Of a DNA stretch of 64,000 nt, positions 9,663-53,635 are shown piece by piece. The stretch spans positions 2,944,001-3,008,000 of the forward strand of contig OZ245046.1 in NCBI GenBank assembly GCA_965224245.1, given 5' to 3'. Below the pieces are notes generated by a model, which was not told where the DNA came from, ran no database searches, and saw nothing but the letters and a program-made list of their open reading frames with translations. This DNA is from Candidatus Eiseniibacteriota bacterium. Lineage in GTDB: Bacteria > Eisenbacteria > RBG-16-71-46 > CAZAMP01. A program made the translations under genes and the position numbers. How positions within the stretch are numbered: position 1 is the stretch's first letter; every line of letters starts with the position of its first letter.

Positions 9663-9679
9663 GGCGCGCTCGAGCTACC

Positions 9680-11304: not shown

Positions 11305-11435
11305 CGACCTCTCGCCGGGCTAGCGACCCGCGCTTCGGGTTCGCGGCCTCATCAGCACTCTGCGCAAGACACGCCCCGTGCCACCAACGCATGTCAGTAG
11401 CAAGCGCATGTCAGACGGCGCCCCCCGCTCATGCG

Positions 11436-11987: not shown

Positions 11988-12055
11988 TGGCCTGACCGCC
12001 TTTCGCTAGCTAGAAGTCCACAGGATCGTGCGATTGCTCATGCCGATCGATCGTC

Positions 12056-30430: not shown

Positions 30431-31789
30431 TCAGGGCAACCGGGCCGCCCGCTTGCCCACGCGGCGCCGGAAGATGTCCTCGACTCGCCGCTTCTGACGC
30501 GCGCGTACCGGTCCGATCACCGCCAGGTAGCGATTGGCGGGACGGAACACGTCGGCCACCACGCGCTCGAGGTCGCCCATGTCGACCGCGAGGTAGCGCT
30601 CGGCCTCGCGGCGCGGGTCGGGCAGCTCGGCCGGCGAGTCCAGGGCCTCCACGCGGCCGAACCAGTCACAGATCTCCAGCGGGTTGTCCAGGAGGAAGTC
30701 GGCCGTCGCGCGCGACACGCAGCGCGCGCGCTCGAGCTCCTCCCCGGTGACCCCGGACTCCCGGATCTCGTCCAGCGTGTCGAACAGTGCGATCAGCGTG
30801 GGCTCGGTGTTCTGCTCGCCGCAGTACGTGGAGATCGTGATCGCGCCGACGTCACGGAACGTCTCGACGTCGGCCCGGACGTCGTACACGAGGCCACGCT
30901 CCTCGCGCACGCGCTGAAACAGCCGGCTCGCCGCGCCGCCGCCGAGGACGCCGGCCAGCACGGCCGACGCCGGATAGTCGGCGTGTCCCAGCGCGTACGA
31001 GCGCATGGCGACGCACAGGTCGACCTGGGTGCCGTCGAAGTAGCGCACGATGGACGCGGGGCGATCGTCGCGCGGATCGATCGGGCGGTACTCGCCGACG
31101 CGCGGGCCCGTCAGCCCGGCGAACACCTCGGCCACCCGCTCGACGGCCGCCTCGGTCTCGAGATCCCCGACCACGACCACCACGGTGTTGCCGGCGGTGT
31201 AGTAGTGCTCGTAGAAGTCGAGCACGCGCGCCCGATCGAACGACGAGAGGTTCCGGAACAGGACCCCCATGTCGACCTGCGCCAGCTCGTCGCCCCACAG
31301 GAGCTGGTAGGCCAGCTCGTGCAGGTTCACGTTGTCACCACGGGAGTCGGTGTACTGCCCCATCTCCTCGACGAGGATCGCGCGCTCGATCTCGACCTGC
31401 TCGTCGGTGAACGTGGGCTCCAGCAGGAGCTCGCCCAGGAGCCCGATACCGTCTCGCCAGTGGTCGCGATGCACGTCCACGATGTAGTCGGTCAGCTCCT
31501 GATGGACGCCGGCGTCCACGTAGCCGCCGAGCCGCTCCACCGCCCGCGAGAGGTCGATGGAGTCGGCATGGCGGCTGGATCCCCGAAACAGAAGATGCTC
31601 GAGGAAGTGGGCGAGCCCGAGCTCGGCCCGGGTCTCGTAGCGCGACCCGATCCGGAGGAACGCACCCAGGGCCACCGAGTGCACGTGCGGCCGGCGCACG
31701 ACGATCACGGTGAGCCCGGAGTCGAGCACGCGCCGGGTGACCTGGATCGCGCTCGCGTTCGGGTCGGGCCCGCCGGTGTCGACCGTCAT
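30431..31789 (-). CDS. M16 family zinc peptidase
   Basis: HFLEH; SRLFQRVREERGLVY. Confidence 0.92.
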   Translation of the reverse strand: MTVDTGGPDPNASAIQVTRRVLDSGLTVIVVRRPHVHSVALGAFLRIGSRYETRAELGLAHFLEHLLFRGSSRHADSIDLSRAVERLGGYVDAGVHQELTDYIVDVHRDHWRDGIGLLGELLLEPTFTDEQVEIERAILVEEMGQYTDSRGDNVNLHELAYQLLWGDELAQVDMGVLFRNLSSFDRARVLDFYEHYYTAGNTVVVVVGDLETEAAVERVAEVFAGLTGPRVGEYRPIDPRDDRPASIVRYFDGTQVDLCVAMRSYALGHADYPASAVLAGVLGGGAASRLFQRVREERGLVYDVRADVETFRDVGAITISTYCGEQNTEPTLIALFDTLDEIRESGVTGEELERARCVSRATADFLLDNPLEICDWFGRVEALDSPAELPDPRREAERYLAVDMGDLERVVADVFRPANRYLAVIGPVRARQKRRVEDIFRRRVGKRAARLP

Positions 31790-34452
31790 CCCGTCGCGGT
31801 CGGCGCCGGCGACAGGATCGCCGTGACCGAGCGTTTCAGATCGAGCGTCTCCGCCGCCGCGGCCACGACCTGCTCCACGGTGACCGCCCGGATCCGGTCC
31901 GGATAGGCCAGGACGTTCGCATGTCCGAGCCCCAGCGCGTCGGCCCGGGCGAACGCGGCGGCCTGACTGCCGCTGCGCTGGAGACCGATCAGGTGCGCGC
32001 CGGTCAACGAGTTGATGGCCCGCTCCATCTCCTCGGACGTGGGGGGATCGGTCACCACGCGGGTGAGCTCCGCGCGCAGCGCCTCGAGCGCACCGTCGAC
32101 GAGATCGGGGCTCGTCCCCACGTAGGCGCCGAAGCTCCCGGCGCCGTCGAGCGACGAGTAGAAGCTCCCGGTGTAGTAGCAGAGGTGGCGCTCGTCGCGG
32201 AGCACGGTGAACAGGCGTGCGCCCATGCCCGAGAGCACCGAGTTCAGCACCGCGTGCGCGAACCGGGTGGGCGAGTGCACGTCGGGGGCCGGCACGGCGA
32301 GCACGAGGACGCTCTGCGCCTTGTCCTTCTCGATGCGGGTGAGCACGGGCTCGGCCGGCGGTGTGAACACCCACGGCGGCGCCGCCGCCATCTCGCCGCG
32401 CGGCAGTCGTTCGAGCCGCTCGGAGAGCGTGGCCGCGAGCGCGGACCCGTCGACGTCGCCGACGGCAGCGAACGTGAGGTTCTCGGCCACGAAGAACCGC
32501 CGGTGCCAGGCGATCAGATCGTCCCGGGTGATCGACGCCACCGTCTCGGGGGTGCCGAGCGGGTTCGCCCCGTATGGATGGTCTCCGTAGAGCTCGGCGC
32601 GGAGCGCGTCCATCGTGATCGCCATCGTGTCGTCACGCTCCTGCTCGATGTCGATCAGGAGCATCCGGCGCTCGCGCTCGACCTCGTCCTCGGGGAACGA
32701 CGCGTCAAGCAGGATGTCGGCGAACAGATCGAGCGCCTGATCCAGGCGATCGGTGAGCGCCTCCAGGTAGAAGCCGATGGTGTCGCGATCGGTGAACGGA
32801 TAGAGCGTGATGCCGTGACGGTCGATCTCCTCGGCCAGCGCAGCGTAAGAGTGCCGGGTGGTCCCCTTCACCAGCGTGCGGCTGGTCAGGATGCCCACGC
32901 CCCGTCGGTCGCGAGGCTCGAAGCGGATTCCGGCCCGACCGTAAGCCGCCAGCGCCACCATCGGTGTCTTGCGGTTCTCGCGGAACACGAAGCGGCTGCC
33001 ACCGGCGAGCTTGGTCTCGGAGACGGCGCCGGGCCGTTCCGCGCGCCCGTTGGCGCGCACGCGGGGGATCGAGAGCTTCTTCGAGGCGTGCTTCGGGGCG
33101 GTCGCGGCCGCGTCCGACGCCGCGGCGGTCACGTCGGCGAGCCGGGCCTCGAGGCGGGCCGCGTACGCGGCCTCTCCCGACCGATCCGGCCCGGTCTTGG
33201 GGCCGGGCAGGTACGTCATCACGGTGCTGCCGTCGAACGTCAGGTACTCTCGCGCCACGCGAAGGACGTCGGCGGCGGTGACGTGCCGCATGCGCTCGAC
33301 GTGCTCCTCGGCGAGATGGTAGCCGCCCAGGTGCTCGAATCGCCCCATGACGTTGGTCTGGCCCTGCACGGTCTCGAGCGCCGAGACGAAGTCGACGATG
33401 ACGTTCGTGACCGCCTTCTCGAGCTCGCGGTCGGTGACCGGCTCCAGGCTGAAGCGTCCGATCTCCTCGTAGACGGCGGCGATGGCGGCCTCGACGTTCT
33501 CGGGCTTGCTCACCGCGTCCACCAGCAAGATCCCCGGATCCCGCCCGGACTCGGCCGAGACGCTGATCTGCGACACGAGCGCCTTCTCCTCGAGGACCCG
33601 CTGCTGCAGGCGCGAGGAGCGCCCGACGCCGAGAAGATGGGCCAGCACGCCCAGCGGCGCCGAATCGGCGTGAAGCTCGGCCGGTACGTGAAAGCCGATC
33701 TTGAAGTATCCGAGCTCGACGTCGCCGGTGATGGCCACGTGCCGGAACCGGTCCTGCGCGGGCTCGGGCTCCGAGCGTGGCAGGTCGACCGGTCGCTCGG
33801 GAATCCGACCCACGGTGCGGGTCAGCGCGGCGATGGCCTCCTGGGTGTCGACGGCCCCGGCGACCGTGTAGATGATGTTGCCCGGCGCGTAGCCGCGATG
33901 GAAGTAGTCGACGATCCGATCGCGTGGCGTCTCCCGCAGCGTGTCCTCGGTGCCGATGATGGACCGGCCGTACCGGTGCCGCGTGAACGCGACGCTCATC
34001 AGGATGTCCCAGGTGAACCCGAAGCCCTCGGGCACGTCCTGGTACATCTGGAGCTCCTCGATGATGACGTTGCGCTCGGCATCGAGAGCGTCGGGGTCGA
34101 AGCGGGAGTTCATCAACGCGTCGGCGTGGATGTCGAGTGCCTGCTCGAAGCCCTCGACCGGCAGGCACACGTAGTAGTGGGTGCTCTCGTAGCCCGTGGC
34201 GGCGTTCAGCTCGCCGCCCAGCCGCTTCACCTCGCGGGCGATGTCACCGACGCCGCGCCGTTTCGTGCCCTTGAAGAGCATGTGCTCGATTCCGTGTGAC
34301 CACCCCCACACGTCGTCCGTCTCGGTGTTCGAACCGACCCCGACGTAGAAGTTGCAGCAGACCACCGGGCACGAGAAATCTTCCTTGATCAGGACCGTCA
34401 TTCCATTGGGGAGGGTCGTCTTGGTCACGTCGGAGAACAAACCGGAGGCCAT
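31786..34452 (-). CDS. M16 family zinc peptidase, double-length
   Basis: HGIEH in N-half, inactive C-half; ATGA overlap with next gene. Confidence 0.92.
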   Translation of the reverse strand: MASGLFSDVTKTTLPNGMTVLIKEDFSCPVVCCNFYVGVGSNTETDDVWGWSHGIEHMLFKGTKRRGVGDIAREVKRLGGELNAATGYESTHYYVCLPVEGFEQALDIHADALMNSRFDPDALDAERNVIIEELQMYQDVPEGFGFTWDILMSVAFTRHRYGRSIIGTEDTLRETPRDRIVDYFHRGYAPGNIIYTVAGAVDTQEAIAALTRTVGRIPERPVDLPRSEPEPAQDRFRHVAITGDVELGYFKIGFHVPAELHADSAPLGVLAHLLGVGRSSRLQQRVLEEKALVSQISVSAESGRDPGILLVDAVSKPENVEAAIAAVYEEIGRFSLEPVTDRELEKAVTNVIVDFVSALETVQGQTNVMGRFEHLGGYHLAEEHVERMRHVTAADVLRVAREYLTFDGSTVMTYLPGPKTGPDRSGEAAYAARLEARLADVTAAASDAAATAPKHASKKLSIPRVRANGRAERPGAVSETKLAGGSRFVFRENRKTPMVALAAYGRAGIRFEPRDRRGVGILTSRTLVKGTTRHSYAALAEEIDRHGITLYPFTDRDTIGFYLEALTDRLDQALDLFADILLDASFPEDEVERERRMLLIDIEQERDDTMAITMDALRAELYGDHPYGANPLGTPETVASITRDDLIAWHRRFFVAENLTFAAVGDVDGSALAATLSERLERLPRGEMAAAPPWVFTPPAEPVLTRIEKDKAQSVLVLAVPAPDVHSPTRFAHAVLNSVLSGMGARLFTVLRDERHLCYYTGSFYSSLDGAGSFGAYVGTSPDLVDGALEALRAELTRVVTDPPTSEEMERAINSLTGAHLIGLQRSGSQAAAFARADALGLGHANVLAYPDRIRAVTVEQVVAAAAETLDLKRSVTAILSPAPTATG

Positions 34453-34585: not shown

Positions 34586-37500
34586 TCACGCGCGACGCCC
34601 CCCGGCCCGGAGGCGCGCGAACCGGGCCTCGTCCAGGCGGCCGGCCAGGAGGTCCGCCACGCGCTGCCTCCGCTGCGCGGCGCTCGTGGCCGGCGGAAGG
34701 CCGACGCGGTCCCGCCGGGCATCCGCGGCGCCGAGAAACCGGGCGGCCAGCCGCGGATGGGAGTCCGCGAGGAGCTCCGCCACCGCCTCCAGCGTATCGG
34801 CCTCCCCGACCGTGTCCCCGATGTCGCGCCGCTGGCGGAGGCTCTCGAAGAGATGCGCGCGGGCGGCGTCTCGGTCGCCACGGGCGAACGCGATCGCCCC
34901 CAGGTTGTGATGGGTCTCCGCGGTGCCGCGGCGGTCGTCGAGCGTGCGCCGTACCGACAGCGCCTCCTCGTGGTACTGCCACGCCCGATCCAGGTCACCC
35001 AGGCGCTCGGCCACCGTGCCCAGGTTGTTCAACGAGTTGGCCTCCGCGACCCGGTCGCCGAGGTGCCTGCGCAGCTCGAGGCTCTCGAGATAGTGTCGCT
35101 CGGCGGTCGCGTAGTCGCGCTCGCGCTCGGCGACGACGCCGAGGTTCAGGAGCGACGTCGCGACCTCGCCGTCGCGTCCGGCCTCGCGATGCATCGCGAG
35201 CGTCGTCTCGAACGCGCGCCGAGCCTCGTCGTGGCGGCCCGCGAAGATGTGCACGACGCCGAGGTTCCCCATCGCCCGGGCCACCAGGAGCTCGTCGTCC
35301 AGCCGGCGTCCACGTGCGATGCACGCCCGATAGCGCGCGGCGGCCGCGTCGACGTCGCCCTGATCCAGCGCCAGGTTGCCCTCCCAGTTGAGGGCGTTCC
35401 CCAGGACCGTGGGCGCCGCGTCGTCGGGAACGGCCGCGATGGCCTCGCTGAGACGGCGACGTCCCTCGGACCAGAGGCCGCGGACGTGCCAGTACTGGCC
35501 CATCCACGTGGCCACGCGCAGCGCGACGACCGGATCGTCGGCGAGCGCCCGCTCCATCGCGACCACCACGTCGGGAAGCGCCTCGTCGATCCGGCTCAGC
35601 CAGGCCGCCTGCTCGGGGCCACGCACCCCGTCGGCCGCCCGCGAGACGAGATCCACGACGACCGCACGGTGCCGCTCCACGAGCGCGGCGTCGGGGGTCG
35701 ACGTGCGGACGGCGTCCGCGACGCGCGCGACCACGCGATAACGGAGACCCGACGCATCGGGTGAGGGCTCGTTCCGCCCGCTGGCCGGAACCGCGTCGAC
35801 CAGCGCCATGTCGCAGAGCTCGAGGAGCGCCGGCATCAGCCGCTCGGGCGGCAGCGCGTCGTCGGCGCAGACGCGGACCAGGGCGTCGGCCCCCGCCGGG
35901 GACGCGAAGATCGGCATGCGCGACACCAGGCATCGTGCGCCGGCCGACAGACGGTCGAGGCTCCAGGCGATGGCGCGGGTCACGGCGTCCTCGGCGTCCG
36001 GCGGTGCGAGGGTGTGGAGCGCGGCCTGCACGCGCGACCGTGCCGCCGCCGCCAGCTCGATCGCGAGCGGGAACCCACCCACGCGGCGGCAGACCTCGGC
36101 CACCTCGGCCAGCTCGACGGGATCGGCCGGATCGAGGACGCTTCCGTCGTCGGGGGACCGCGCCGGCTCGGCTCCACTCGCGTCGCGCGATGCCACGTCG
36201 AGAAACAGCGCGATCGCGGGCGAGCGCGCGAGCGTGGCCGCATCCCCGCCCGGGGGCGGCACCGGCAGCGCGCGCACACGCACCGTGGTCGCCGAATCGA
36301 GCGGCGCGCGCGACGTGACGAGAAGACGGGCCCGGGGACCATCCGCGAGATCGGTGACGAGTCGGGCGACATCCTCGAGGAGCGCATCGGCCTGGTCGAG
36401 GACGACGAGCCGGCCGGTGGCCTCGATCGCATCGCGCACGGCGCCCTCGAGCGAGCGATCGCGCCCCTCGCCCACGGCGAGAGCGCGGGCCACCCGCAGC
36501 AGCACATCCGACCGGTCCCGTGCGCCGGCGAGATCGACGACCACCGACCCGCCGGGCGCGACCGACCGGTCCCCGTGCACGGCGCGGGCCACCTCTAGGG
36601 CCACGCGCGTCTTGCCGACCCCGCCGGGCCCGACCAGCGCGACGCACCGATGCGTCACCAGAAGCGCGGATACCATCGCGATCTCGTGCGCCCGCCCCCG
36701 CGTCGGCGTGCGAGCGCCGTCCACCGCGGGATCCATCGGCGGCACACCCGCGTCCGCGCCGGTCCCCGGCGGCTGCCGCGCCAGGGCGAGCGCCTCCGAG
36801 AGGATCCGGCGGCACGCGTCGGCGCTTCGGGGGCGGTTCGACGGATCCTCGTCCAGCGCTCGATCGATCATGTCCGTGACGGCCGGGACCCCGTCGAGGG
36901 ACGCCGGCCAGGGCGGGCGCGCGGGGCCTTGCCCCGTCACGTCGGCCCAGCGGGATCCGGTCAGGCACTCGAAGAGCACGACCCCGAGCGACCACACGTC
37001 GGCGCGGGTGTCGATCTCGTCGCCGCGGCGCGCCTCGGGGCTCACGTACCCGGGCGTGCCCACCGGCAGCGCCGACTCGCCGCCGAGCTGCGCGATCCCG
37101 AAGTCGAGGACCTTCGCGGTGCCGGCCGGTGTGACCACCACGTTGGACGGCTTCAGATCGCGGTGCACGAGCCCCCGGGCGTGGGCTTCGGCCAGCGCGA
37201 GCGCGACGTCGTGTCCGACGGCGAGCGCCCGCTCGAGCGACATCAGCCCCGCGTCCAGGACCGCGCGGAGCGTGCGCCCCTCCACGTACTCCACGACGAG
37301 CCGGGGCTCGGGGTCGGACACCTCGAGCGCCAGCACGCGCGCGATCGCCGGATGGTCGAGCGACGCCAGCACTCGGGCCTCGCGGGCCAGTCGGCGCCGG
37401 GCCGACCGGGCACGCGGCTCGTCGAGGAACTTCAGCGCAACGCGGCGACCGGACTCGTGCCCGGTTGCCAGCCACACTTCTCCGGCGCCGCCCGCGCCGA

Positions 37501-38158
37501 GACGTTCGACGAGCACGTAGCTGCCCGAGCGCGCGCCCGGGATCCGCCCCCGCGAGGGGGTCGGCTCCCCGGCGGCCTCGTCGTCTCGGTCACCTTCGGT
37601 CGGCTCACCCAGACGCTCGCTCAGGAACTCCCGCGCACGCGCCCAGTCGCGCTCGATCGTGCGCGAGGTGACACCCAGGAGCTCGGCGGCGTCCGCCGCA
37701 CGGAGCCCGCCCAGACCGATCAGCTCCACGACGCGCGCCTGGCGCGGGGACAGCCGCCCGAGCTCGGCGAGCGCGTCCTCCAGCGCGATCGCGTCGCACA
37801 CGTCGCCCGGCGGCGTGCCCCCGATCGACGACAGCGACACGTGCGTGACGTTGCCGCCCCGCTTGCGCCGTCCCTTGCCGCGCGCGTGATCCACCAGCAG
37901 CCGTCGCATCGCCTTCGCGCTGAGCGCCAGGAACTGCCGCCGCGACCGGGCCGACACGTCCGCGCCGGCGCTGACCCGGATGAACAGCTCGTTCACGAGG
38001 CCCGCGGGATCGAGCGTATGATCGCGGCGTTCGCCGATCATCTGTCGCCGCGCGATGGACAGCAGCTCGTCGTAGGCCGCGGCGAACGCATCGGACAGGA
38101 CCGACCGGGCCGGGGCGTCGGTGTCGAGACGCGCGAGCAGGCGTGTGATCTCGGTCAT
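34586..38158 (-). CDS. ECF sigma factor - Ser/Thr kinase - STAND ATPase - TPR fusion
   Basis: YDEL..AMRRLLVDHAR..KRGG; GAGGAG, HRDLKPSN, DFG; GPGGVGKT; repeated LNNLG TPRs. Confidence 0.88.
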   Translation of the reverse strand: MTEITRLLARLDTDAPARSVLSDAFAAAYDELLSIARRQMIGERRDHTLDPAGLVNELFIRVSAGADVSARSRRQFLALSAKAMRRLLVDHARGKGRRKRGGNVTHVSLSSIGGTPPGDVCDAIALEDALAELGRLSPRQARVVELIGLGGLRAADAAELLGVTSRTIERDWARAREFLSERLGEPTEGDRDDEAAGEPTPSRGRIPGARSGSYVLVERLGAGGAGEVWLATGHESGRRVALKFLDEPRARSARRRLAREARVLASLDHPAIARVLALEVSDPEPRLVVEYVEGRTLRAVLDAGLMSLERALAVGHDVALALAEAHARGLVHRDLKPSNVVVTPAGTAKVLDFGIAQLGGESALPVGTPGYVSPEARRGDEIDTRADVWSLGVVLFECLTGSRWADVTGQGPARPPWPASLDGVPAVTDMIDRALDEDPSNRPRSADACRRILSEALALARQPPGTGADAGVPPMDPAVDGARTPTRGRAHEIAMVSALLVTHRCVALVGPGGVGKTRVALEVARAVHGDRSVAPGGSVVVDLAGARDRSDVLLRVARALAVGEGRDRSLEGAVRDAIEATGRLVVLDQADALLEDVARLVTDLADGPRARLLVTSRAPLDSATTVRVRALPVPPPGGDAATLARSPAIALFLDVASRDASGAEPARSPDDGSVLDPADPVELAEVAEVCRRVGGFPLAIELAAAARSRVQAALHTLAPPDAEDAVTRAIAWSLDRLSAGARCLVSRMPIFASPAGADALVRVCADDALPPERLMPALLELCDMALVDAVPASGRNEPSPDASGLRYRVVARVADAVRTSTPDAALVERHRAVVVDLVSRAADGVRGPEQAAWLSRIDEALPDVVVAMERALADDPVVALRVATWMGQYWHVRGLWSEGRRRLSEAIAAVPDDAAPTVLGNALNWEGNLALDQGDVDAAAARYRACIARGRRLDDELLVARAMGNLGVVHIFAGRHDEARRAFETTLAMHREAGRDGEVATSLLNLGVVAERERDYATAERHYLESLELRRHLGDRVAEANSLNNLGTVAERLGDLDRAWQYHEEALSVRRTLDDRRGTAETHHNLGAIAFARGDRDAARAHLFESLRQRRDIGDTVGEADTLEAVAELLADSHPRLAARFLGAADARRDRVGLPPATSAAQRRQRVADLLAGRLDEARFARLRAGGRRA

Positions 38159-38216
38159 GCGCCAGTGTACTGCGCGTCCCCGGGCGACCGCGCGCGAGAT
38201 CTTCCGCCCACGGCGG

Positions 38217-38744
38217 TCAGAGGATGCGGGTCAGTGAGACACCCGAGATGGTCGCGCCGATCAGGAGCTTGATCCAGACCGCACCGAGCTTGCCCACGAA
38301 GGCACCCCAGCCGGCACGCGCGCTCTCCCCGAGCCCGCCGGTGTCCCGGCGGCGGCGAGCCCACTCCAACGCGAAGGCCCCCAGAAACGCCCCGGCGAAC
38401 GACCCCAGGAGCGTGCCCACGATCGGGACCACACCGCTCCCGAGCGTGGCCCCGGCGATGCCGCCCACGAACGCGCCGGCGATCCCCCAGCGTCCCGCGC
38501 CGTACCGGCCCGCCATCGCGGCCCCCAGGATCGACTCCAGGATCTCGCCGATCACGACGAGCCCGGCGAAGATGCCGAGCCAGACCCACCCGACCACGTC
38601 GAACCCGTGGATCCAGTCGTAGAGCACGGTCGCGCCGAGGATGATGAACGTGCCGCCGAGCCCCAGGGGAATGGCCACGAGCCCGACGACGTAGACGGCG
38701 ATCAGCACGACCGTCGCCAGGACGGCACCAATGGATTCCCACAC
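38217..38744 (-). CDS. DUF456 family membrane protein
   Basis: Gly-rich TM pattern, GAFVGGIAG. Confidence 0.8.
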   Translation of the reverse strand: MWESIGAVLATVVLIAVYVVGLVAIPLGLGGTFIILGATVLYDWIHGFDVVGWVWLGIFAGLVVIGEILESILGAAMAGRYGAGRWGIAGAFVGGIAGATLGSGVVPIVGTLLGSFAGAFLGAFALEWARRRRDTGGLGESARAGWGAFVGKLGAVWIKLLIGATISGVSLTRIL

Positions 38745-38745: not shown

Positions 38746-40095
38746 TCAGGTCACCAGCGGCAGGATCAGCTCGGCCAGGGACAGGTAGACCAGGATCCCG
38801 AGCACGTCGTTCGCGGTGGTCACGAACGGACCGGCGGCCAGCGCCGGATCCACGTTCATGCGATCCAGCAGCACCGGGACCAGCGAGCCGACGGTGGTGG
38901 AGAGCAGGATCACCGAGAACAGCGCGACCCCGACCAGGAACGCCAGCCAGAACCCGTGTAGCCACAGCCCGACCACGACCGCGATCAGGGTCCCGCACAC
39001 GAGCCCGTTGAGGACGCTGACCAGGAACTCCTTCCAGACCCGGCGCCCCAGAGCCCGGTAGGCGCCGGGGCCGGTCGCGAGGCCCCGCACGGCGATGGAT
39101 GCGGACTGCATCGCGACGTTTCCTCCCATCGCGTTGATCACGGGCACGAAGAACGCGAGGCTGACGATCTGGGTCAGGCTCAGCTCGAAGCGACTGAGCA
39201 CCCGGGCCGCCAGGAGACCCCCGGCCAGTCCCACGAGAAGCCACGGGAGGCGGCGCCCGGTGGCATGCAGCACCGTGTCCGCCGGATCCTCGTCGCCGGT
39301 CCCCGCGAAGCGACCGATGTCCTCCTCGGCTTCCTCCTCGAGCACGTCGACGACGTCGTCGACGGTGATCACCCCGAGCATGCGACCGGACGCATCCACG
39401 ACCGGCGCCTCGAGCACGTCGTACTGCCGGAACCGCCGCGCGACCTCCTCCTGGTCCAGATCGGGCTGAACCACGAGAACGGGATCGGTGGCGATCGTGG
39501 ACAGCGGGGTCCCCGCCGCCGAGACGAGGAGCTGACGGAGCGTGACCAGACCGGTCAGCGGCCCATCGGGCTCGGACACGTACACGACGTGCGGATCGGG
39601 GATGTCGTCGGCGGAGGCCCGGATCTCGTCGATCGCATCCTCGACGGTGGCCCGTGGCGAGAGCTCGAGGTACTCCGAGGCCATGATGCCGCCGGCGGTG
39701 TCCTCGGGGTACTCGAGGAGCAGTCGCAGCTCGGCCGCGTCCTCGGCGTCGAGACGTCCGAGCACCTGCTCCTGCACCGGCTCGTCGAGCGTTCCCACCA
39801 GATCGGCGGCGTCGTCGGAGTCGAGGTGCTCGACGAGCTCGGAGATCTCGCCGGGCTCCATCTCCTCGACGAGCTCGTCGCGGTGGCGCTCGTGGACCTC
39901 GAGGAGCACGTCCGAGCGCTGCTCGTTGCCGAGCAGCTCGAACACGAAGGCGCGATCGTCGGCGTCGAGGAGATCCAGCACGTCGGCGATGTCGGCCGAG
40001 TGCATGTTCGGAAAGAGATTGCGGAGCCATGCGGAAGCCCGCTGCTCGACGAGTCCGAGCACGTCCTCGAGAGCGTCCGGGGAGAGTTCGGCCAT
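38746..40095 (-). CDS. mgtE: Magnesium transporter MgtE
   Basis: YPEDTAGGIM, CBS pair, MGGNVAMQS, DPALAAGPFVTTAND. Confidence 0.95.
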   Translation of the reverse strand: MAELSPDALEDVLGLVEQRASAWLRNLFPNMHSADIADVLDLLDADDRAFVFELLGNEQRSDVLLEVHERHRDELVEEMEPGEISELVEHLDSDDAADLVGTLDEPVQEQVLGRLDAEDAAELRLLLEYPEDTAGGIMASEYLELSPRATVEDAIDEIRASADDIPDPHVVYVSEPDGPLTGLVTLRQLLVSAAGTPLSTIATDPVLVVQPDLDQEEVARRFRQYDVLEAPVVDASGRMLGVITVDDVVDVLEEEAEEDIGRFAGTGDEDPADTVLHATGRRLPWLLVGLAGGLLAARVLSRFELSLTQIVSLAFFVPVINAMGGNVAMQSASIAVRGLATGPGAYRALGRRVWKEFLVSVLNGLVCGTLIAVVVGLWLHGFWLAFLVGVALFSVILLSTTVGSLVPVLLDRMNVDPALAAGPFVTTANDVLGILVYLSLAELILPLVT

Positions 40096-40225
40096 GATCG
40101 CTCGTGTCCTGACGTCGGCGGGAACGAACACGCGTCGGTGAACCGTCCGGCATGATGCGGGGAGAGGACCGAGCGGATCAACCGTTCAATGGCCTCGCGT
40201 GGGCTCCGGCGACCGCGCGCGACCG

Positions 40226-40906
40226 CTACGCCACGTGGGCGAGCGGTCGCTTGGTCGCCGGTGCGAGCTTCCCGTCGTCGGTCACGCGCCGATCGAAGTA
40301 CAGCGCCAGCTCCTTGCGGAGAAACAGCCGCGCCCGGTGCAGCCGGCTCTTGACCGCCGGCAGCGACAGACCGAGGAGCTCACCGATGTCCTTGTTCGGC
40401 AAGCCCTCGACGTCGGCCAGCACCAGGACGGGGCGGAACTTCTCTGGCAGCTTCTGGATCGCTCGGCGGATGACCCCGTGTCCCTCCTCGGAGAGAAATA
40501 CCGCATCCGGCACCTTCGACCAGTCGGGCGCGACGTGCGCGACGTGACCGTCGTCGGTGTCGGCGCCGGTGACGTCGAGGTCCTGGTGCTGGTGCTTCTT
40601 CGAGCCACGGACCAGCATCAGCGCCGAGTTGACGGCCACCCGGTAGATCCACGTCTTCAGGGCCGAGCGGCCCTGGAACCGATCCAGCTTGCGCGCCAGG
40701 TTCAGGAACGCATCCTGTGTCGCGTCCTCGGCATCTTCTCGATTGCCGGTGATCTTGTATGCGAGGTTGTAGACCATGCTCCGATAGCGGTGCAGGATCT
40801 CCAGAAACGCACGATCCTCACCGGCGACGTATCGCTCGACGAGCTCGGCGTCGGTCGCCGTCTCGAACGACGTGCGCACGTGCGCGAGCTGAGATGAGGA
40901 AGTCAT
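40226..40906 (-). CDS. ECF RNA polymerase sigma factor (RpoE-like)
   Basis: DAEDATQDAF, TWIYRVAVN, VKSRLHRAR. Confidence 0.92.
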   Translation of the reverse strand: MTSSSQLAHVRTSFETATDAELVERYVAGEDRAFLEILHRYRSMVYNLAYKITGNREDAEDATQDAFLNLARKLDRFQGRSALKTWIYRVAVNSALMLVRGSKKHQHQDLDVTGADTDDGHVAHVAPDWSKVPDAVFLSEEGHGVIRRAIQKLPEKFRPVLVLADVEGLPNKDIGELLGLSLPAVKSRLHRARLFLRKELALYFDRRVTDDGKLAPATKRPLAHVA

Positions 40907-42673: not shown

Positions 42674-44035
42674 CTACCAGTGGCGGATCATCTCCATGTA
42701 TGTCTTCGCATCGAAGTCGGGCGAGTTCGCCTGATCGTGGCAGCTCGTGCAGGTGTTGGCGGTGAGCAGCGTCTTGTCGCCCGGATGGAGCGTCCCCATC
42801 TGGTGACACGCCTCGCACTGCACGGCGGTGAGATCGGGCTTCATCGTGGCGCTCTGGAAGCCGGTCTTGGCGCCCTTGCCGGTGACGTGACAGGACACGC
42901 AGTCGTCGTTGGACTCCATGCCCATGTCGACCAGCGTGGCCCAGGCCCTCGCGTGCGGTCCCTGCTGCCACTTCTCGAACTCGGTCTGGTGGCACCGCGC
43001 GCACGTGTCGGCCCCGAGGAACCGATCGACCTCCTGCTGGTTCTGGAACTCGGCCTGCTTCGCCAGGCGCTCTTCCTTCTGAATCCGCTTGATCTCGGCG
43101 TCCATCTCGTTGACGAGCGTCTGGACGTGCGGATCCTTGCGCGCGGCCTTCTCGTCGAGCTGCTGCGAGCGTCCGTCGTACTGCACGACGGTGCCGGTCT
43201 CATCGACCTCCATCTCCAGCCACGCGATGTACTGCCCTCGCGTACCCGGCCGCACGATGATCGTGCTGCCGACGGTCGTGTGCGTGGCGCGCAGCCCGCC
43301 CCGGTGACCGAGCACGGCCACGTCGATGTCGGGTTGACGGCGCACGACCGAGTCGGTGAACGCCAGCTCCATCTGCGAGAGCAGCACGAGCACGTCGCAG
43401 CCCGCGTCCTTGAGGTCGCTCACGATGCGGTCGGCGCTGGTGAACACGTCGTCGGCGACCAGGGGCTGAGGCGCCTGGACCGCGCGTTCGACGACGTCGC
43501 TGTGCATCAGGCTGAAGATCCCGACCTTGTGGCCGTCCATCTCACGAATCGTGTACGGCTCGGACACGGGGGCCCGCACGCCGTTCCTCTCCGTGTAGAC
43601 GTTGCTCAGGAGCACCGCCGGCTGCCCCTCGGCCAGCTCCGCGAAGTGTTGCACGTCGCGGCGGAGCTCGCGCTCGCCGGGAGACACGGCGTCGTAGCCG
43701 ATGCGCTTCATCGTCTTGAAGATGAAGTCGGACTTGAGCTCGCCCCACGTGGGGTTCAGATCACCCCAGTTCCCCGCATCCACGACGAGGGTGTTCTCGG
43801 TGATCGCGCGAATCGAATCGACGAAGGTAGCCCGCCGGGCCAACCCACCTTTCTGGTTCTTCTTTCACCCGCACTCTTCGATCTCGCCGTTGTTCGAGGC
43901 CGTGGCGAGAACGTACATCTTGGTGACCTTGCCGGTGGGCTGTGCCGCCTGGGCGAAGTGAGGGCCGATCGCGAGCGTTCCGATCGCGAGGCCGCCGAGC
44001 GCGATCGCACTCAGCAGCGCGTGTGGCTTCTGCAC
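42674..44035 (-). CDS. Secreted UshA-like selenoprotein with tetraheme cytochrome c domain (TGA at codon 57)
   Basis: GAAGGAG RBS, GTG, signal peptide, GEIEECG-TGA-KKNQKGGLARR in frame; CARCH, CVSCH, CEACH, CTSCH. Confidence 0.85.
43824..43851 (-). promoter_or_regulatory. Candidate bacterial SECIS hairpin
   Basis: AAGGU..GGCCC GGC GGGCU ACCUU starting 13 nt after the UGA. Confidence 0.5.
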
Positions 44036-44255
44036 GAGTTGAGCTCCTTCGTGAGAGACGAACGATCCGGATCATCTTCCCGGGTGGTTCGAAGCGTGCG
44101 ATACCCTATCAGAGCGCGGGCGTGCGAGTCGAGCGCCACCACCCGGTGGTGCGCCGACATCCGCCGCCGACGCCGACGCCGAACGTTAACAATCCAGATC
44201 GGCTCCTGGATCGCCCGCTCGGGCGTATTTACATGGCCTTTACGACGACCGCGGG

Positions 44256-45689
44256 TCACTCGGACCGGACCGGCTCGTCTCCGCCGGCCGGTCGGTGCAG
44301 GATCCTCGTCCAGTACGACGCCGGGTCGAACGCCGGGGAGTTCTCCGCGTCGTGACACCGCCGGCATCGCGACGGCTCCACCGGCGGAACGGCGCCCCGA
44401 TCCGGATGACCATCCGGCACGGCGTGACACGCCGCACACGCGACGCCTCGCGCCCGCGAGCGTCGCTCCGAGGCGCTGGCACCGTCCGGCTCATCGGTCA
44501 CCTCGCCCGCGCCGGCGTGATCCGGTGGCCCGGGCGAGGTATCGTGACAGCTCACACAGGCCGCCTCGTCGGGGAATCCTGCGTCCACGAGCGTCTCGAA
44601 TGCGCGGGCATGCCGCGTGGTGCGCCAGTGGGCGTGCTCCGTCTCGTGGCACGACGCACAGGCCGCGTCCCCGGACCCGGCGGGCGACCGCTCGGAACCG
44701 GCTCCCCGGGCGCGCGCCGCCGCTTCGAGCAGCTCCCGTCGGTGGGCGGCGGCCCGCCGGGCCTCGATCTCGCGTACCCAGCGGTACACGGCCACATCCT
44801 GGGGAAAGCTCTCCAGGAGACCGTGCGTCCGCCCCGCGACCTCGGCCAGGCCGGCGGCGTCCATGCGCAGGACCACCTCGGCCAGGTAGCGACCGCGATC
44901 GCCCGGATGAACGTACACGGTGCCGTCCGCGACCCCATGCGTCGGATCGGCGGGGGGCGAGTGGCTCGACACCACCACGTCGAATCCGGCACGGCGGCCG
45001 AGCGGTCGCACGTCGCGGTGCGGCACGTGGGCGAACAGGACGAGCGCATCCGCGCCCGCGGCGCGCATGTCGGTCGCCACGGCCCGAGCGGCCTCGGCCG
45101 GATCCCGGACCAGGAACCCACCGACCGGCGGCGGGAGCTCGTCGACGAGCCGGGGGGCGATCACCGACGAGACCCCGACCACGAGGTCCCCCATGGGAAC
45201 CAGCACGTACGGACGGAAGGCCGCCCGGACGCTGTCGCCGGACTCCCGGAACAGGTTCGCGTTCACGAAGGGAGGTCCGGCCGGGTCCTCGGCGGCGCCG
45301 CGGGCGAGCTCGAGCGGGCCCACGCCGGCTGCCCGGTAGCCTTCGCGGGCCAGGTACACCCGGATGGAATCGGAGACACCGATCGCATCGTCCCCGCGCA
45401 CGCTGAAGTCGCCGGCGTCGAGCAGGACGAGCTCGCCCCGGAGTCGCAGCGAGTCCACGAGCGCCGAGCGCCGCGCGAGCCCGCCCTGCGGGCCGGACCG
45501 GCACCCGCACTCGGCGATCTCGCCCGCGACGGCCGCCGTGACCGCGAAACGCGCCTCGCGATATCGACCGGCACCCGGCGGCGTGCGGGCGGCACACGCG
45601 AGCCACGAGCACGCGACCACGACCGCCGTGATCCTCGCCAGGCGGGCCGTTGCGGGCGCGCCGGCGCGCGACTCAGCCCTCCTGCTCAT
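44256..45689 (-). CDS. UshA-like lipoprotein with tetraheme cytochrome c domain (Cys paralog)
   Basis: WLAC lipobox; GEIAECGCRSGPQGGLARR; DAGD; CASCH, CVSCH, CAACH, CRRCH. Confidence 0.85.
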   Translation of the reverse strand: MSRRAESRAGAPATARLARITAVVVACSWLACAARTPPGAGRYREARFAVTAAVAGEIAECGCRSGPQGGLARRSALVDSLRLRGELVLLDAGDFSVRGDDAIGVSDSIRVYLAREGYRAAGVGPLELARGAAEDPAGPPFVNANLFRESGDSVRAAFRPYVLVPMGDLVVGVSSVIAPRLVDELPPPVGGFLVRDPAEAARAVATDMRAAGADALVLFAHVPHRDVRPLGRRAGFDVVVSSHSPPADPTHGVADGTVYVHPGDRGRYLAEVVLRMDAAGLAEVAGRTHGLLESFPQDVAVYRWVREIEARRAAAHRRELLEAAARARGAGSERSPAGSGDAACASCHETEHAHWRTTRHARAFETLVDAGFPDEAACVSCHDTSPGPPDHAGAGEVTDEPDGASASERRSRARGVACAACHAVPDGHPDRGAVPPVEPSRCRRCHDAENSPAFDPASYWTRILHRPAGGDEPVRSE

Positions 45690-48600
45690 AGAAGATCTCC
45701 GGCAGCGCCTTGACACCGATCCAGAACTGGTAGCTCACCGCCGACCCCAGGAGCTGTCGCGAGAAGCGCGCCTCCCAGCAGTGGAGATCGCGCACGATCG
45801 ACAGCGTCGAGCTCGTGACCTCCGTCTCTCGCAGATCGGCCGACAGGTTGTAGCGCACGCTCCACTTCGGGGTGACGGGAACGGTGAAGCTCCCGTTGGC
45901 CGTGCTCGTGTAGTTGCTGGGATCGGCGCCTCGCCGGTACGTGGCGCGGAGCGTGGCCGCCCAGGGCAGTCCGGGCTGCGCGCGTTCGCGATCGCCGAGG
46001 AGATCGCGACGGCGCTCCGGCACGTCCGACACGTCCTCGGCCAGGAAGTCCGATCCGGCGGGGAGCGCACCCGCGGTCTTGCCGCTGAGGCTCAGGTTGC
46101 CCGAGATCGACAGGCTGGTGAGTCCTTCGCCGTAGACACCCTGGGTCCCCGAGAAGTCGAGGTTGAACAGCCGGTGTGGCCGCAGACGTCCGCTGGCCGT
46201 GATCGGGGACCAGGGCTGCTCGTCGTCCTCGAAGTCGTAGCCCGAGGACAGGTTGATCGACATGAAGTCCTTCACCGTCCGGGGCTCGTCCTCGCCGGAG
46301 GCGAGCCTCGCATCGAAGCTGTTGTTCAGCGTCAGCGAGAGCCGGCGCGACAGTGACGAGCCGCCGAACGAGATGCCGCCCACGGACGGGAACCGGCTCC
46401 GGCGGATTCCGTCGTCGTCGACGTAGGAGCCGGCGGTGTTCTCGGGCGTGTACGTGAACGTGGCGGCCGGCTGCATCACGTGACGAAGCGCCACGATGGG
46501 CCCCACTCGGCGGTTGAACGTGCCGTAGACGGTCGTGCTGGTGCGCGCGCCCGCGGACCAGCGTCCGGCGCGTTGCCACTTCTCGCCCCGGTTGTCCTCA
46601 TCGAACAGGAACTCCGAGTAGCTGAAGCGAGGCGACACCGCGAGCGGTCCCAGGCTGCGGTTGTCGGAGACGTCGACGTTGTGACGGGCGGCGAACGCCG
46701 CGGAGGCGGGGCCCTCCTCGATCTCCTGCTCGATGCGCGACGCCCGGAACGCGTATCCCCAGCGCATCGTGCTCAGCAGCGGCAGGAAGCCGCCGTCGCG
46801 TCCCGAAGCCTCGCGCCCGATCGGACGCTGGCTGAGGCTGAACGACACCGTCGGGAGCGTGTTCGTGACCGCGACGCGGCCGGAGTCGGCCTCGAGGTCC
46901 TGCGTGCGCGACAGGTTCAGCCCCAGCGACGCACCGGTCCACCGGCGTGAATAGGCGAGGTTGGACGTGAGCACGCGATCCACCTGCTGCTCGATGTTCT
47001 CGCCGAGGCCCTGGTCCAGAAGAAACCGGCTGCTGCTGACGAAGTTCGCGTCCACGGTCAGCGTTTGATCCGGTCCGAGATCCTGCGCGTGCCGGGCGCG
47101 GAACTCCCAGTCCCGGCTGCGCGGCTCGGCGTCGGTGTAGAACCGCTCGCGCGGGGGGCCCTCGGCCGACAGCGAGGTGTACACGGCGCCTTCGAAGGCG
47201 TGCGTGAGCTTGTAGCGCGTGTCCAGGTACCCGATCCAGCGGGGGCCCTGGGCGCGGGAGCCCGAGAAGCCGGGCGCCTCGAAGTCGACCCACGCACTGA
47301 GATCCGCGTAGTCGCTGAACGCCCAGTAGTAGCCGACGTTCCGGAGATAGCGACGCCGGTCGTCGATGCCGATCTCGTAGCCGAAGCGCAGCCAGCCCGA
47401 GCGCCGTCCGCGCTCGATCGGAAACAGGAAGTACGGAACGGCGAGAATGGGAATGTCGGCGACGTGCAGCACCACCGGCCGTCCCACGACCTTGTCCTTC
47501 AGCCGGATGCGCACCTGGGGGATCAGGAAGTGGAAGTGCGGGTCGTCACGATCGCAGGTGGAGTACTTGCAGCTCTCGACGTAGAGTGTCTCGTCGTCGA
47601 TCTTCTTGATGCGACGTCCCTGGAAGTAGCCGCCGTCGAGCTCCGTCTTGCCGTGATGCACCACCCCCTGCTTGGCCTCGACGTCGTAGTCCATGGCGAC
47701 GCCGGTGACCACGCCGCCGGGATCCTCGAGCGACGGCTCCTCCGAGGCGACGATGGTCTGGTTCCGGGTGTCGAAGACGACGCGGCCGGCGCGCAGCCAC
47801 GCGTCCTGGTACTGCACGGACGCGGCGTCGCTCAGCATCAGGTCGCGAGTGGTCATGTCGTAGGTGACCTCCTCGGCCGCGTACGTGACCTCGTCCATGC
47901 CCCCGGGAAACAACGAGTCGGGCGGGACGACCGACTCGAGGGGCGCGATGCGGGCCGCCCAGGCCACCGAGTCCGAGACCGCGGAATCGGGCGTGGCGAC
48001 GACCGGCTCCGGCTTCGCCGCGAAGACGTCGCCGAGTCGCAGCACGCTCACCGAGTCCGCTCCGGCGCTCTGGCGGCCGGGCTCCAACGCATCTCCGATC
48101 GAGACCGAATCGGGCGCAGCTCCCGGGCCGGACGCCTCCCGGCCCAGCGGCGGGCCGGCGTCGCCCGGCGGGGCGGCGCCGGACCCGGCGTCGGCCGTCT
48201 CGCCGGCATCCGTGCCGGACATTGCGCCGGCGTCCGTGCCGGGCATTGCGCCGGTGTCGGCATCGGGCGGCGTGCCGGCGTCGGTGTCGGGCGTCGCGCC
48301 GGCGTCGGTGTCGGGCGGCGGCGTGTCGCGCTGCTCGTCCGTCGCCGGAGATCCTTCCTCCTCGCCGGGCTCGATCCCATCCGCGGCGCCGCGATCCCGC
48401 GCGCGATCCCGCGCGCGATCGCGCGCGGGTTCTGCCGTCGCCGCCGTGTCGGGTACCGCCGGGGCCGTGCCGTTCTCCGCCGCGAACCAGTAGCGGCCGG
48501 TCGCGTTCCCCTCCAGGATCACCGTCGACACCTGCCCCTCGTGGAACAGGAGCCGGATGCGATCGGCGTCCGCGTGATTGGCGCCCGTGCCGAGGGCCAG

Positions 48601-49719: not shown

Positions 49720-49912
49720 GCGGCCATCTACGCTTCGAGGTGTCGGTCGATCGAGACGCGGGGGTCCGCGCCGTCGGACGGAGCGCGAGCGCTGGGACGA
49801 TACCCGGCCGGGGCCCAGAGCGCGACCCTCCTCGACACCGCACCGGTGAGACGCGTCGATCCCGCTGCCGGTTCCGCACCGTCGAAGGCGCGGCCCGCTC
49901 CGCCGGGCCGCC

Positions 49913-50857
49913 TCAGCGGACCGCGAACTCGTTCGCGTACATCGCCGCGCCGATCGCGCCGGCCTCGGCTCCGAACGCGGACGGCACCACACGCGGCTTC
50001 TGATCGGTGGGCGCCATCGTGTGCGCGTGCACCGCCTCGGCGACCGGCCCGAGCAGCACGTCCCCCGCGCGGGCCACACCCCCACCGATCACCACGCGAT
50101 CGACGCTCAGGAGATTGCAGACCCCGGCGAGCGCGATGCCGAGGATGCGCCCGGTCTCGTCGAACGCCCTCCGCGCGGCCCAGTCGCCGCCGGCGGCGGC
50201 CTCGGCGATGCGCTTGGGGGTCAGCGCGTCGATCTCCGACCCGAGAATGCTCTCGGCGCCGCTCTCGACGAGACGCCGCGCCCGCTCCACGATCCGCGCG
50301 TTGCCCACGAACATCTCGAGACACCCCCGTCCACCGCACGGGCAGCGCGGCCCGTCCACGTCGACGCACATGTGACCGATCTCGCCCGCGGTGCCGAACG
50401 CACCCCCGAAGAGTCGACCGCCGGCCACGATGGCGCCGCCGACGCCGGTGCCGAGCGTGACGTACAGCCCGCACCGCGCGCCGTGCCCGGCGCCCAGCGC
50501 GGCCTCGCCGAACGCGAACGCGTCGGCGTCGTTGATCAGGGTGACCGGCAGGCCGGCGGCCTCGGCCAGGAGATCGCGCAGCGGCACGTCGCGCCAGCTC
50601 GGGAGATTCGGGGAGAGGCCGACGATGCCGCGCTCGACGTCGATGAGCCCGGCGCACCCGACCCCGATCGCGGTGGCCTCGGAGCCGGCGAGCTCGGCGA
50701 CCTCGGCCACGGCGGCGGCCAGCTCGGCGATCAGCCGGTCGACGTCCTCGCCGGAGCCGGTGGGCACGCTACGGGTCAGCCGGACCCCGTCCGCCGGCGC
50801 CATGGCGACCAGCTTCACGTGCGTGCCGCCGACGTCCATGCCGACGACGAGGCTCAC
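49913..50857 (-). CDS. ROK family sugar kinase
   Basis: DVGGT, NDAD, GTGVGG, GEIGH, CPCGGRGCLE. Confidence 0.92.
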   Translation of the reverse strand: MSLVVGMDVGGTHVKLVAMAPADGVRLTRSVPTGSGEDVDRLIAELAAAVAEVAELAGSEATAIGVGCAGLIDVERGIVGLSPNLPSWRDVPLRDLLAEAAGLPVTLINDADAFAFGEAALGAGHGARCGLYVTLGTGVGGAIVAGGRLFGGAFGTAGEIGHMCVDVDGPRCPCGGRGCLEMFVGNARIVERARRLVESGAESILGSEIDALTPKRIAEAAAGGDWAARRAFDETGRILGIALAGVCNLLSVDRVVIGGGVARAGDVLLGPVAEAVHAHTMAPTDQKPRVVPSAFGAEAGAIGAAMYANEFAVR

Positions 50858-53158: not shown

Positions 53159-53635
53159 TCAGCCGTCTCCCAGCAGGAGATCGAACAGCAGCGCGTCCTC
53201 GCGGGACGGCTCGGTGTAGTAGCCTCGCCGCACCCCGACCTCGACGAATCCGAACGCCCGGTAGAGCGCGACCGCGGCCACGTTGGAGCGTCGCACCTCG
53301 AGCGTGACCCGGCGCTGACCCCGTGTCCGTGCCGTCGAGACGATCGCGGCGACCAGGTGCCGGCCGATTCCCGCCCGGCGACGGGCGTCGGCCACGGCCA
53401 CCTTGGCGAGCTGGGTCTCGTCCAGGACGTGCCAGGCGATGGCGTATCCGGCCACACCATCGGCGTCGGCGGCGACCAGACAGGAGGCCGTGGACGGGGG
53501 CTTCAGCGCCTCGCTGCGGAGTGCGGCCAGGCTCCACGGCGACCTGAACACGGCGGACTCGATGGCCGCCACCTCGGGCAGGTCACTCTCGCGCATCGTG
53601 CGAACCCGGACGCCGGATGCCGGGAACGGCGTCAC
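53159..53635 (-). CDS. rimI: RimI-type N-acetyltransferase
   Basis: LEVRRSNVAAVALY..GF..VGVRRGYY. Confidence 0.88.
   Translation of the reverse strand: MTPFPASGVRVRTMRESDLPEVAAIESAVFRSPWSLAALRSEALKPPSTASCLVAADADGVAGYAIAWHVLDETQLAKVAVADARRRAGIGRHLVAAIVSTARTRGQRRVTLEVRRSNVAAVALYRAFGFVEVGVRRGYYTEPSREDALLFDLLLGDG

Follow-up and report, generated by a model that had tools for sequence, protein, structure and literature searches.

The 64,000-nucleotide (nt) stretch of contig OZ245046.1 from a Candidatus Eiseniibacteriota genome (assembly GCA_965224245.1), referred to below as the window, carries on its minus strand a single gene at positions 34586..38158, stop codon included, whose 1,190-residue product is designated P0001. 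In Pfam searches, this protein consists of four modules, in the following order: a sigma factor of the ECF43 type (ECF, for extracytoplasmic function), a Hanks-type Ser/Thr kinase, an NB-ARC/STAND NTPase, and tetratricopeptide repeats (TPRs). Such an organization suggests a cytoplasmic pathway contained in one polypeptide, in which an ECF43 sigma factor has been fused to its cognate STAND-type kinase and, in P0001 itself, the last step has been rewired. This reading is assigned a probability of roughly 55%.

Four modules in a single reading frame

Long spurious open reading frames (ORFs) are common in DNA of 74 to 76% G+C, the local composition around P0001; this gene nonetheless has a real coding signature over its full length. 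The G+C content at the third codon position (GC3) stays between 0.84 and 1.00 in all 23 consecutive 50-codon windows, so a single coding frame can be traced across every domain junction, and the lowest G+C is found at the second codon position in each of the same 23 windows. The stop-to-stop frame extends to position 38230 and has no internal stops, and the ATG at 38158, its first start codon, is taken as the start of the gene; no Shine-Dalgarno-like sequence is visible ahead of it. The uninterrupted 1,190-residue ORF described in a first-pass annotation of this DNA was thereby confirmed, and so were the modules listed there, namely, an N-terminal sigma factor of the kinase-associated type, an intact Hanks kinase, a Walker A motif reading GPGGVGKT, and C-terminal TPRs. 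The same annotation had noted that no transmembrane segment is present, and none was found in P0001: the highest 19-residue Kyte-Doolittle mean, 1.65, falls on the β-strand leading into the P-loop.

The sigma domain, with its σ2 and σ4 parts, occupies residues 1 to 182 (37613..38158, minus strand). It matches positions 1 to 182 of the 185 in the Pfam profile PF07638 (Sigma70_ECF) with 130 bits against a cut-off of 21.1, and the NCBIfam model TIGR02999 (Sig-70_X6) with 147.1 bits against a cut-off of 126.15; it is thus a full-length match to ECF43-type family models above their curated cut-offs. The ECF43 entry in the supplement to PMC7826278 describes sigma factors of just this kind, which are recognized by the Pfam model Sigma70_ECF and not by the r2/r4 models, have a kinase gene at position +1, and have no anti-sigma factor. 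Against a profile of 85 stand-alone relatives, the P0001 domain scores 191 bits, and the other four-domain proteins described below score from 189 to 226. The AlphaFold2 (AF2) model of the domain, with a predicted local distance difference test (pLDDT) score of 77.8, shows two helical domains with a disordered linker between them, consistent with the σ2/σ4 fold of ECF sigma factors and its flexible connection. The best fold matches of this model in the PDB were SigW, RpoE, SigK, CnrH, and the Mycobacterium tuberculosis ECF sigma factors in initiation complexes, all with weak E values (best 2.6e-3, none at or below 1e-3); a sequence search of the PDB with the sigma domain returned nothing significant (best E value 0.032). 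The disordered linker between σ2 and σ4 (residues 101 to 122; 37793..37858, minus strand) was delimited by pLDDT, which drops below 50 for residues 103 to 120, and contains the candidate phosphosites T105, S108, S110, S111, and T115.

An acidic, Pro/Gly-rich linker (residues 183 to 213; 37520..37612, minus strand), defined from the sequence and by the comparable linkers found at the same position in the homologs P0122, P0123, P0127, P0205, and P0225, connects the sigma domain to the kinase. The Hanks-type kinase domain itself (residues 214 to 447; 36818..37519, minus strand) matches the Pkinase model with 134.8 bits. In a 60-sequence family alignment that includes P0001, residues K243, E260, H332, D334, N339, P374, E375, D387, and R442 are invariant, and D352-F353-G354 and T368 are nearly so. 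The protein has the Gly-rich loop, the VAIK Lys, the αC Glu, the HRD, DFG, and APE motifs, and the conserved Arg, i.e., all the hallmarks of a Hanks kinase.

The NB-ARC/STAND module (residues 488 to 910; 35429..36697, minus strand) was identified with AAA_22, AF2, and Foldseek and includes nucleotide-binding, helical, winged-helix, and arm parts. Its P-loop NTPase domain spans residues ∼488 to 614, with an AAA_22 match at residues 502 to 606 (35.3 bits, cut-off of 27). The Walker A motif is formed by residues 510 to 517 (window positions 36608-36631), Walker B includes D588, and the GxP motif is represented by G695-P697; residues G510, G513, G515, K516, D588, G695, and P697 are invariant in the 60-sequence alignment. 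The AF2 model of residues 470 to 910 (pLDDT of 87.1, predicted template modeling score [pTM] of 0.83) matched ADP-bound Apaf-1 (1z6t; 1.4e-9) and the prokaryotic STAND-TPR protein 6mfv (1.8e-9) in Foldseek searches, followed by CED-4, the plant NLR resistosomes NRC2, ZAR1, and Sr35, and MalT (8bob). Both the STAND/NB-ARC fold and the tripartite layout of effector, nucleotide-binding oligomerization domain (NOD), and repeats are thus recognizable, and the middle part of P0001 is, as modeled, a genuine NB-ARC/STAND module. The matches to Apaf-1, CED-4, and NLRs justify the description "NLR-like" for this architecture, a term that had been applied to it before any fold comparison.

The predicted sensor region (residues 919 to 1139; 34742..35404, minus strand) matches TPR_12 in three stretches (103.3 bits) as well as TPR_10, TPR_1, and TPR_2. 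It is retained in the family consensus and is followed in P0001 by a conserved C-terminal tail. A complex prediction pairing the sigma domain with residues 470 to 1190 scored 0.00 in both runs, which had no controls, and it speaks neither for nor against docking within the protein.

Fused and split relatives

The distribution of this architecture was followed with a phmmer search that compared full-length P0001 with 1.84 billion cluster representatives and listed the best 150 proteins, of which the 149 other than P0001 were annotated. By far the most common combination among these best representatives was kinase, NB-ARC, and TPRs without a sigma domain (137 of 149). All four modules were found in four proteins (P0122, P0123, P0127, and P0225), and a fifth, P0205, has the sigma, kinase, and NB-ARC domains and stops inside the NTPase, so it is probably partial. 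The remaining representatives comprised NB-ARC and TPRs only (three proteins), TPRs only (three), and a kinase only (one). The protein P0122 matches, with 100% identity, an ORF at the locus referred to below as L034, on OZ244990.1, the chromosome of a Candidatus Eiseniibacteriota metagenome-assembled genome (MAG). The database names of the fused proteins are generic, such as "ECF-type sigma factor" and "serine/threonine protein kinase."

The nearest atlas clusters to P0001 with at least 50 members are all of the kinase-NB-ARC-TPR type and range from 50 to 355 members, and PF07638 does not figure in the three families given for each of them. It is therefore likely that the four-domain form is uncommon. 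A word-indexed search of longer proteins with the sigma domain alone retrieved P0001 itself as the sole match. In trees of the kinase and NB-ARC domains, the six fused proteins fell into one clade, mixed with unfused proteins, in three groups. The first of these trees included 79 of the 145 available rows (with the first 70 of 136 unfused proteins), and the later tree and the approximately unbiased (AU) test were based on 32 rows. Monophyly of the six fused proteins was not rejected in this test (P = 0.653), and the constrained tree had the higher likelihood, so that a single ancestral fusion is compatible with the data and repeated fusion is not claimed.

The sigma domain is fused to a kinase in a second and larger family as well. 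A search of longer proteins with a 10-sequence profile showed PF07638 joined with a kinase in 24 of 30 clusters (23 besides P0001); this census is incomplete, as it missed P0122, P0123, P0127, P0205, and P0225 even though they were in the query alignment. Members of the second family are mostly ∼950 to 1,000 residues long and contain TPRs without the STAND module; one of them is labeled as coming from a Longimicrobiales MAG. The fusion proved real, and it is less singular than the first-pass annotation implied, being shared by a small clade and paralleled in this larger sigma-kinase-TPR family.

Several variants were noticed along the way. The second-family proteins P0031, P0271 to P0286, P0288, and P0291 all have Thr at the acceptor column of the sigma domain (see below). 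The 1,070-residue protein P0057 has the reversed order, with the sigma domain at the C terminus, after the kinase, a hydrophobic stretch, and TPRs. At the locus L046 (5091-8564), a kinase-TPR ORF is followed by a sigma gene in an overlapping frame. The 543-residue protein P0287, encoded on a 2,446-bp contig, combines PF07638 with AAA_22/AAA_16 and has no kinase domain listed; this could be a kinase-less sigma-STAND fusion, or else a fragment.

Separate genes are the rule outside these families. When one genome for each GTDB species was scanned with the sigma profile, 79 loci were obtained, which represent the top 80 among at least 584 matches. The scan pattern, [AV]MR[RQH][IV]L[VI][DE][HY]A, is not matched by P0001, so its source genome and very close relatives are absent from this set, and the single fused locus in it (L034) is no estimate of frequency. 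A sigma gene is followed by a kinase domain on the same strand starting within 900 nt in 58 of the 79 loci, in agreement with the earlier statement that such sigma factors are normally encoded separately. Counting a separate kinase anywhere in the stretch raises this number to 69; nine loci, several of them at contig ends, have none. Two loci, L005 from Gemmatimonadota and L062 from Bryobacteraceae, encode a sigma factor followed by a kinase-NB-ARC-TPR protein and represent the split, ancestral arrangement of P0001. Since the split form is usual among the relatives, P0001 can be regarded as a fusion of a known sigma/kinase pair, with the cognate Hanks kinase fused in frame.

A feature of the split loci that the fused proteins do not share is a helical motif of ∼45 residues just before the kinase domain. 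It was detected in 66 of the 80 kinase ORFs in the sigma loci L001 to L079, including those at L005 (residues 59 to 102 of ORF 8399-11881) and L062 (residues 13 to 52 of ORF 8553-12008); of the 144 listed representatives other than four-domain proteins, 37 have it as well. All six four-domain proteins lack this motif, so the fusion is not a recent stop-codon loss. The motif may be a candidate sigma-docking element that became redundant once the two partners were covalently linked.

With the split form as the norm, it could be argued that a misassembly or a sequencing error simply joined adjacent sigma and kinase genes in this contig. Such an origin is hardly credible, given that five independent proteins have the same junction, that the coding signal is continuous, and that the distribution of the helical motif does not fit the mere disappearance of a stop codon. 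The junction shared by independent homologs answers the question of an assembly error indirectly, and the occurrence of the fusion in five other representative proteins and on a MAG chromosome removes the suspicion that it is confined to one genome; judging from these sequences, the fusion is not an assembly artifact.

The missing threonine and the proposed mechanism

The accounts of ECF43 sigma factors in PMC8999054 and PMC8103513 describe them as lacking the acidic motif, DAED, through which region 2.2 contacts the β′ subunit. In its place is a Thr (in EcfP, within the sequence STTA; in EcfK, T51, according to PMC13147305), and its phosphorylation by the partner kinase restores the charge. 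In P0001, this segment (H47 to E57; 37988..38020, minus strand) reads HTLDPAGLVNE, with A52 (codon 38003-38005) at the family acceptor position, and the suspicion that the acceptor Thr might have been lost was raised by the first-pass annotation. An alignment of 124 sigma domains to a family profile shows that it has. Of these domains, 88 came from the loci and 36 from protein searches, and the entries for L034 and P0122 are the same sequence. The residue in the acceptor column is Thr in 114 of them, Ser in seven, and Pro in two, and the single Ala is A52 of P0001. The two Pro cases represent a shifted segment of the IDPSS type, with an adjoining Ser, and all five four-domain relatives of P0001 keep HTLQPT. 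Compared with the consensus, three codons are changed in P0001 (giving D for Q, A for T, and G for A), which makes a single sequencing error unlikely. Accordingly, P0001 has D50-P-A52-G in this segment and lacks the DAED motif as well as the acceptor Thr; an Asp in the D50 column is found in 10 of the 124 domains.

For the family as a whole, a simple sequence of events can be proposed. The TPR/arm region would bind a cytoplasmic inducer, the STAND module would go from the ADP to the ATP form and multimerize, and the clustered kinase domains would become active, as clustered Hanks kinases do through trans-phosphorylation. The attached sigma domain would then be phosphorylated at the region 2.2 Thr, acquiring the negative charge for binding to the RNA polymerase β′ subunit, and the whole protein, or a freed sigma fragment, would direct transcription. 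The nucleotide-dependent steps are modeled on STAND proteins, including the Ser/Thr kinase PknK, for which the parts of PMC4381067 dealing with them describe a transition from a closed ADP state to an open ATP state and inducer-dependent multimerization. That an NLR-like receptor could have direct transcription initiation as its output is suggested by the architecture.

For P0001, the simple chain from sensor to kinase to phosphorylated sigma cannot be assumed, since the Thr-to-Ala change makes phosphorylation at that site of region 2.2 impossible. Three alternatives for the last step can be envisaged. First, phosphorylation might take place in the Ser/Thr-rich disordered linker (T105, S108, S110, and S111), as at T106 in EcfK. 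According to the EcfK results in PMC13147305, phosphorylation of either T51 or the linker residue T106 is sufficient, and a T51A substitution does not abolish transcription. The linker residues of P0001 may be equivalents of the EcfK phosphosites. Second, STAND-driven release or assembly might suffice on its own, in which case D50 would make up for part of the missing charge. Third, the sigma domain might no longer initiate transcription and might act as a decoy. Since the sigma domain has been preserved to the same degree as in relatives that bear the Thr, the first two alternatives, taken together, rank above the third.

The degree of conservation is central to this choice. Conservation of 85% or more among the 85 stand-alone sigma factors is seen in 44 columns, of which P0001 retains 35. 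In these columns, its own 9 deviations compare with 5 to 10 in its fused relatives and with a median of 3 (maximum, 11) in the stand-alone sigma factors. Four of the nine deviations in P0001 (H75, R147, F149, and W178) are at positions that are also deviant in other four-domain members, and the helix-turn-helix consensus of region 4 is kept. By these comparisons, the sigma domain of P0001 is not degenerate and is conserved as well as in the fused relatives. These data bear directly on the suggestion that this domain is a noninitiating remnant or a decoy (a pseudosubstrate or docking domain) in a soluble STAND kinase that acts on other substrates, possibly a different, stand-alone sigma factor encoded elsewhere in the genome. 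A52 equals a phospho-ablative substitution and occurs once in 124 sequences, 137 of the 149 best relatives function without a sigma domain, and the score of 191 bits with the stand-alone profile is at the low end for four-domain proteins. With the conserved columns kept within the range of the Thr-bearing fused relatives, the TIGR02999 cut-off exceeded, the region 4 consensus intact, and transcription persisting in the EcfK T51A mutant, as reported in the EcfK experiments of PMC13147305, a decoy role is on balance unlikely.

A different proposal retains initiation and dispenses with the phospho-switch: in P0001, inducer-driven oligomerization of the STAND module would make the sigma domains accessible or bring them together, thereby recruiting RNA polymerase, and the kinase would be kept for feedback or for other targets. 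This version is considered distinctly unlikely. If true, it would make P0001 the first bacterial NLR-type receptor with transcription initiation as its output, resembling a resistosome whose effector is a polymerase subunit, and a natural case of a kinase-dependent sigma factor evolving kinase independence.

The preferred reading, a one-polypeptide pathway with a rewired last step, has to contend with several observations. Judging from the alignment, the sole experimentally established activation site of the sigma family is missing in P0001, and A52 is unique among the 124 sequences. The column of T105 contains Thr in only 6 of the 124 relatives, so the aligned sigma factors do not share a conserved linker site. 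Clustering at 90% identity leaves P0001 as a singleton, and the closest relative shares about 39 to 42% identity with it, so that selection on the sigma domain is not measurable. The C-terminal body of 1,000 residues attached to the sigma domain raises the question of whether RNA polymerase can be entered at all. Finally, a comparison of 10 neighboring window genes with all ORFs of the 79 loci revealed no shared context, the unrelated canonical ECF sigma factor being the only one of the 10 with matches; as no neighbor recurs at the related loci, no regulon is proposed. All these points weigh against the proposed pathway.

Related systems and genomic neighborhood

The closest characterized systems are EcfP-PknT from Vibrio parahaemolyticus and EcfK-PknS from Xanthomonas citri, in which sigma factors of the same family, with no DAED motif and no anti-sigma factor, have a Hanks kinase partner normally encoded at position +1. 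P0001 differs from them in having the sigma factor and the kinase on one chain, Ala in place of the acceptor Thr, and a soluble kinase with NB-ARC and TPR modules; their kinases are single-pass membrane proteins with outward-facing TPRs. According to the ECF43 data in the supplement to PMC7826278, 87.8% of the kinases of this group have one membrane helix. Soluble STAND kinases of the M. tuberculosis PknK type and the kinase-NB-ARC-TPR family have the same order of kinase, NOD, and sensor repeats as P0001 without the sigma domain.

MalT and AfsR follow the same logic, in which an NTP-driven oligomerization switch and a repeat sensor control a transcription output in the same protein. In these regulators, the output is a DNA-binding activator (of the LuxR or SARP type), whereas in P0001 it would be a sigma factor, with the kinase placed between output and switch. 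AfsR is phosphorylated by AfsK. The match of P0001 to the AfsR model in NCBIfam is weak and partial (45.9 bits against a cut-off of 1,430). Among ECF sigma factors, the groups ECF41, ECF42 (with C-terminal TPRs), and ECF57 combine a sigma factor and its regulator on one chain, as P0001 does, and thus make up "one-component" sigma systems; their extensions, as covered in PMC8999054, are nonenzymatic and act by direct contact, and none is reported there with a kinase or a STAND NTPase. The cyanobacterial "SigR," with the architecture r4_2*NB-ARC*TPR_MalT (described in the SigR section of PMC11119718), likewise joins a sigma-derived domain with NB-ARC and TPRs but has region 4 only, lacks σ2 and a kinase, and belongs to a different sigma family.

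A literature search that did not extend to Iyer et al. 2020 (Nat Microbiol) or Jogler et al. 2012 (J Bacteriol), which may mention such fusions, brought up no description of a complete ECF43 sigma factor joined to its kinase, whether or not a STAND module is present. The parts of P0001 and their logic were already known; of its individual features, the unique phospho-acceptor loss stands out as the most interesting. Control of ECF sigma factors by Hanks kinases has been established recently and from few pairs with membrane kinases, to which P0001 would add a cytoplasmic branch with an NLR-type STAND sensor. The joining of the whole pathway into one protein in several lineages provides "Rosetta stone" evidence that the soluble STAND kinases act on the neighboring sigma factor, and the fused forms are tractable for studying substrate recognition, phosphorylation in cis versus in trans, and control of the kinase by the STAND module. 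The Thr-to-Ala change in an otherwise conserved sigma domain amounts to a natural experiment that sets secondary sites, such as T106 of EcfK, against phosphorylation-independent gating.

Upstream of P0001 are a DUF456 gene (38217-38744) and an MgtE gene (38746-40131). The 58 nt separating P0001 from the DUF456 gene (38159-38216) open with a short GC-rich inverted repeat, CCGCC-GTG-GGCGG, without a T-run. Downstream, on the same minus strand, there are two genes for M16 (insulinase-type) peptidases. The first (31786-34452) encodes an 888-residue protein with two M16 + M16_C units and has a probable start at 34452, a GAGGAG ribosome-binding site, and a 133-nt gap from P0001; the second is at 30431-32374.

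The presence of two peptidase genes directly downstream, on the same strand, is relevant to the possibility that the low-complexity linker at the sigma-kinase junction (residues 183 to 213) undergoes cleavage once the STAND module has been activated and thereby releases a small sigma factor. Proteolytic release has a precedent in the extended ECF sigma factors IutY and SCO4117, as presented in PMC8999054. However, the gap and the ribosome-binding site separate the first M16 gene from P0001, M16 genes adjoin no related locus, and there is no conserved cleavage motif or protease partner, all of which makes this route improbable.

An even lower probability is assigned to the idea that P0001 is an NLR-like antiphage defense protein (similar to Avs or bNACHT), with the kinase as the effector and the sigma domain as an accessory. 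It has the tripartite layout of NLRs and an NB-ARC fold that matches resistosomes, and the PADLOC kinase models PD-T4-6 and mad6 match it strongly. However, the 25 displayed of the 35 PADLOC matches all fall within residues 194 to 566, and 24 of them end by residue 496, covering the kinase and its edges only. PDLC04043 (residues 207 to 566) alone reaches the start of the NB-ARC domain, and none of those displayed covers the rest of the STAND module or the TPRs. The neighbors have housekeeping functions (MgtE, DUF456, M16 peptidases, PhoD, and LptD), with PADLOC matching none of four neighboring proteins, and the split relatives are found in the standard sigma/kinase signaling arrangement. P0001 thus shows, among the displayed matches, neither the STAND or sensor match nor the defense island expected of a known antiphage NLR system.

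The window contains no other members of the P0001 sigma family and no related kinases. The promoter motif given for ECF43 in the supplement to PMC7826278 consists only of GTC at −35 and CAG at −10, which is too weak for scanning DNA of 70 to 76% G+C. A canonical ECF sigma factor with Sigma70_r2 and r4_2 domains is encoded at 40226-40906 on the minus strand; the MgtE gene lies 95 nt downstream of it, with no anti-sigma gene between them, and a gene for a PhoD-like phosphatase is divergent. Farther upstream, there is a very long LptD-family gene (45673-50085, minus strand; 1,470 residues), which, together with the high G+C content, indicates that the host is a high-G+C bacterium with an outer membrane. 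This gene is adjoined by two ORFs of the multiheme cytochrome c type (42674-45716, minus strand). A response regulator receiver fused to a PglZ domain is encoded near a protein with a histidine kinase ATPase domain (53632-55185 and 57215-58492, both on the minus strand).

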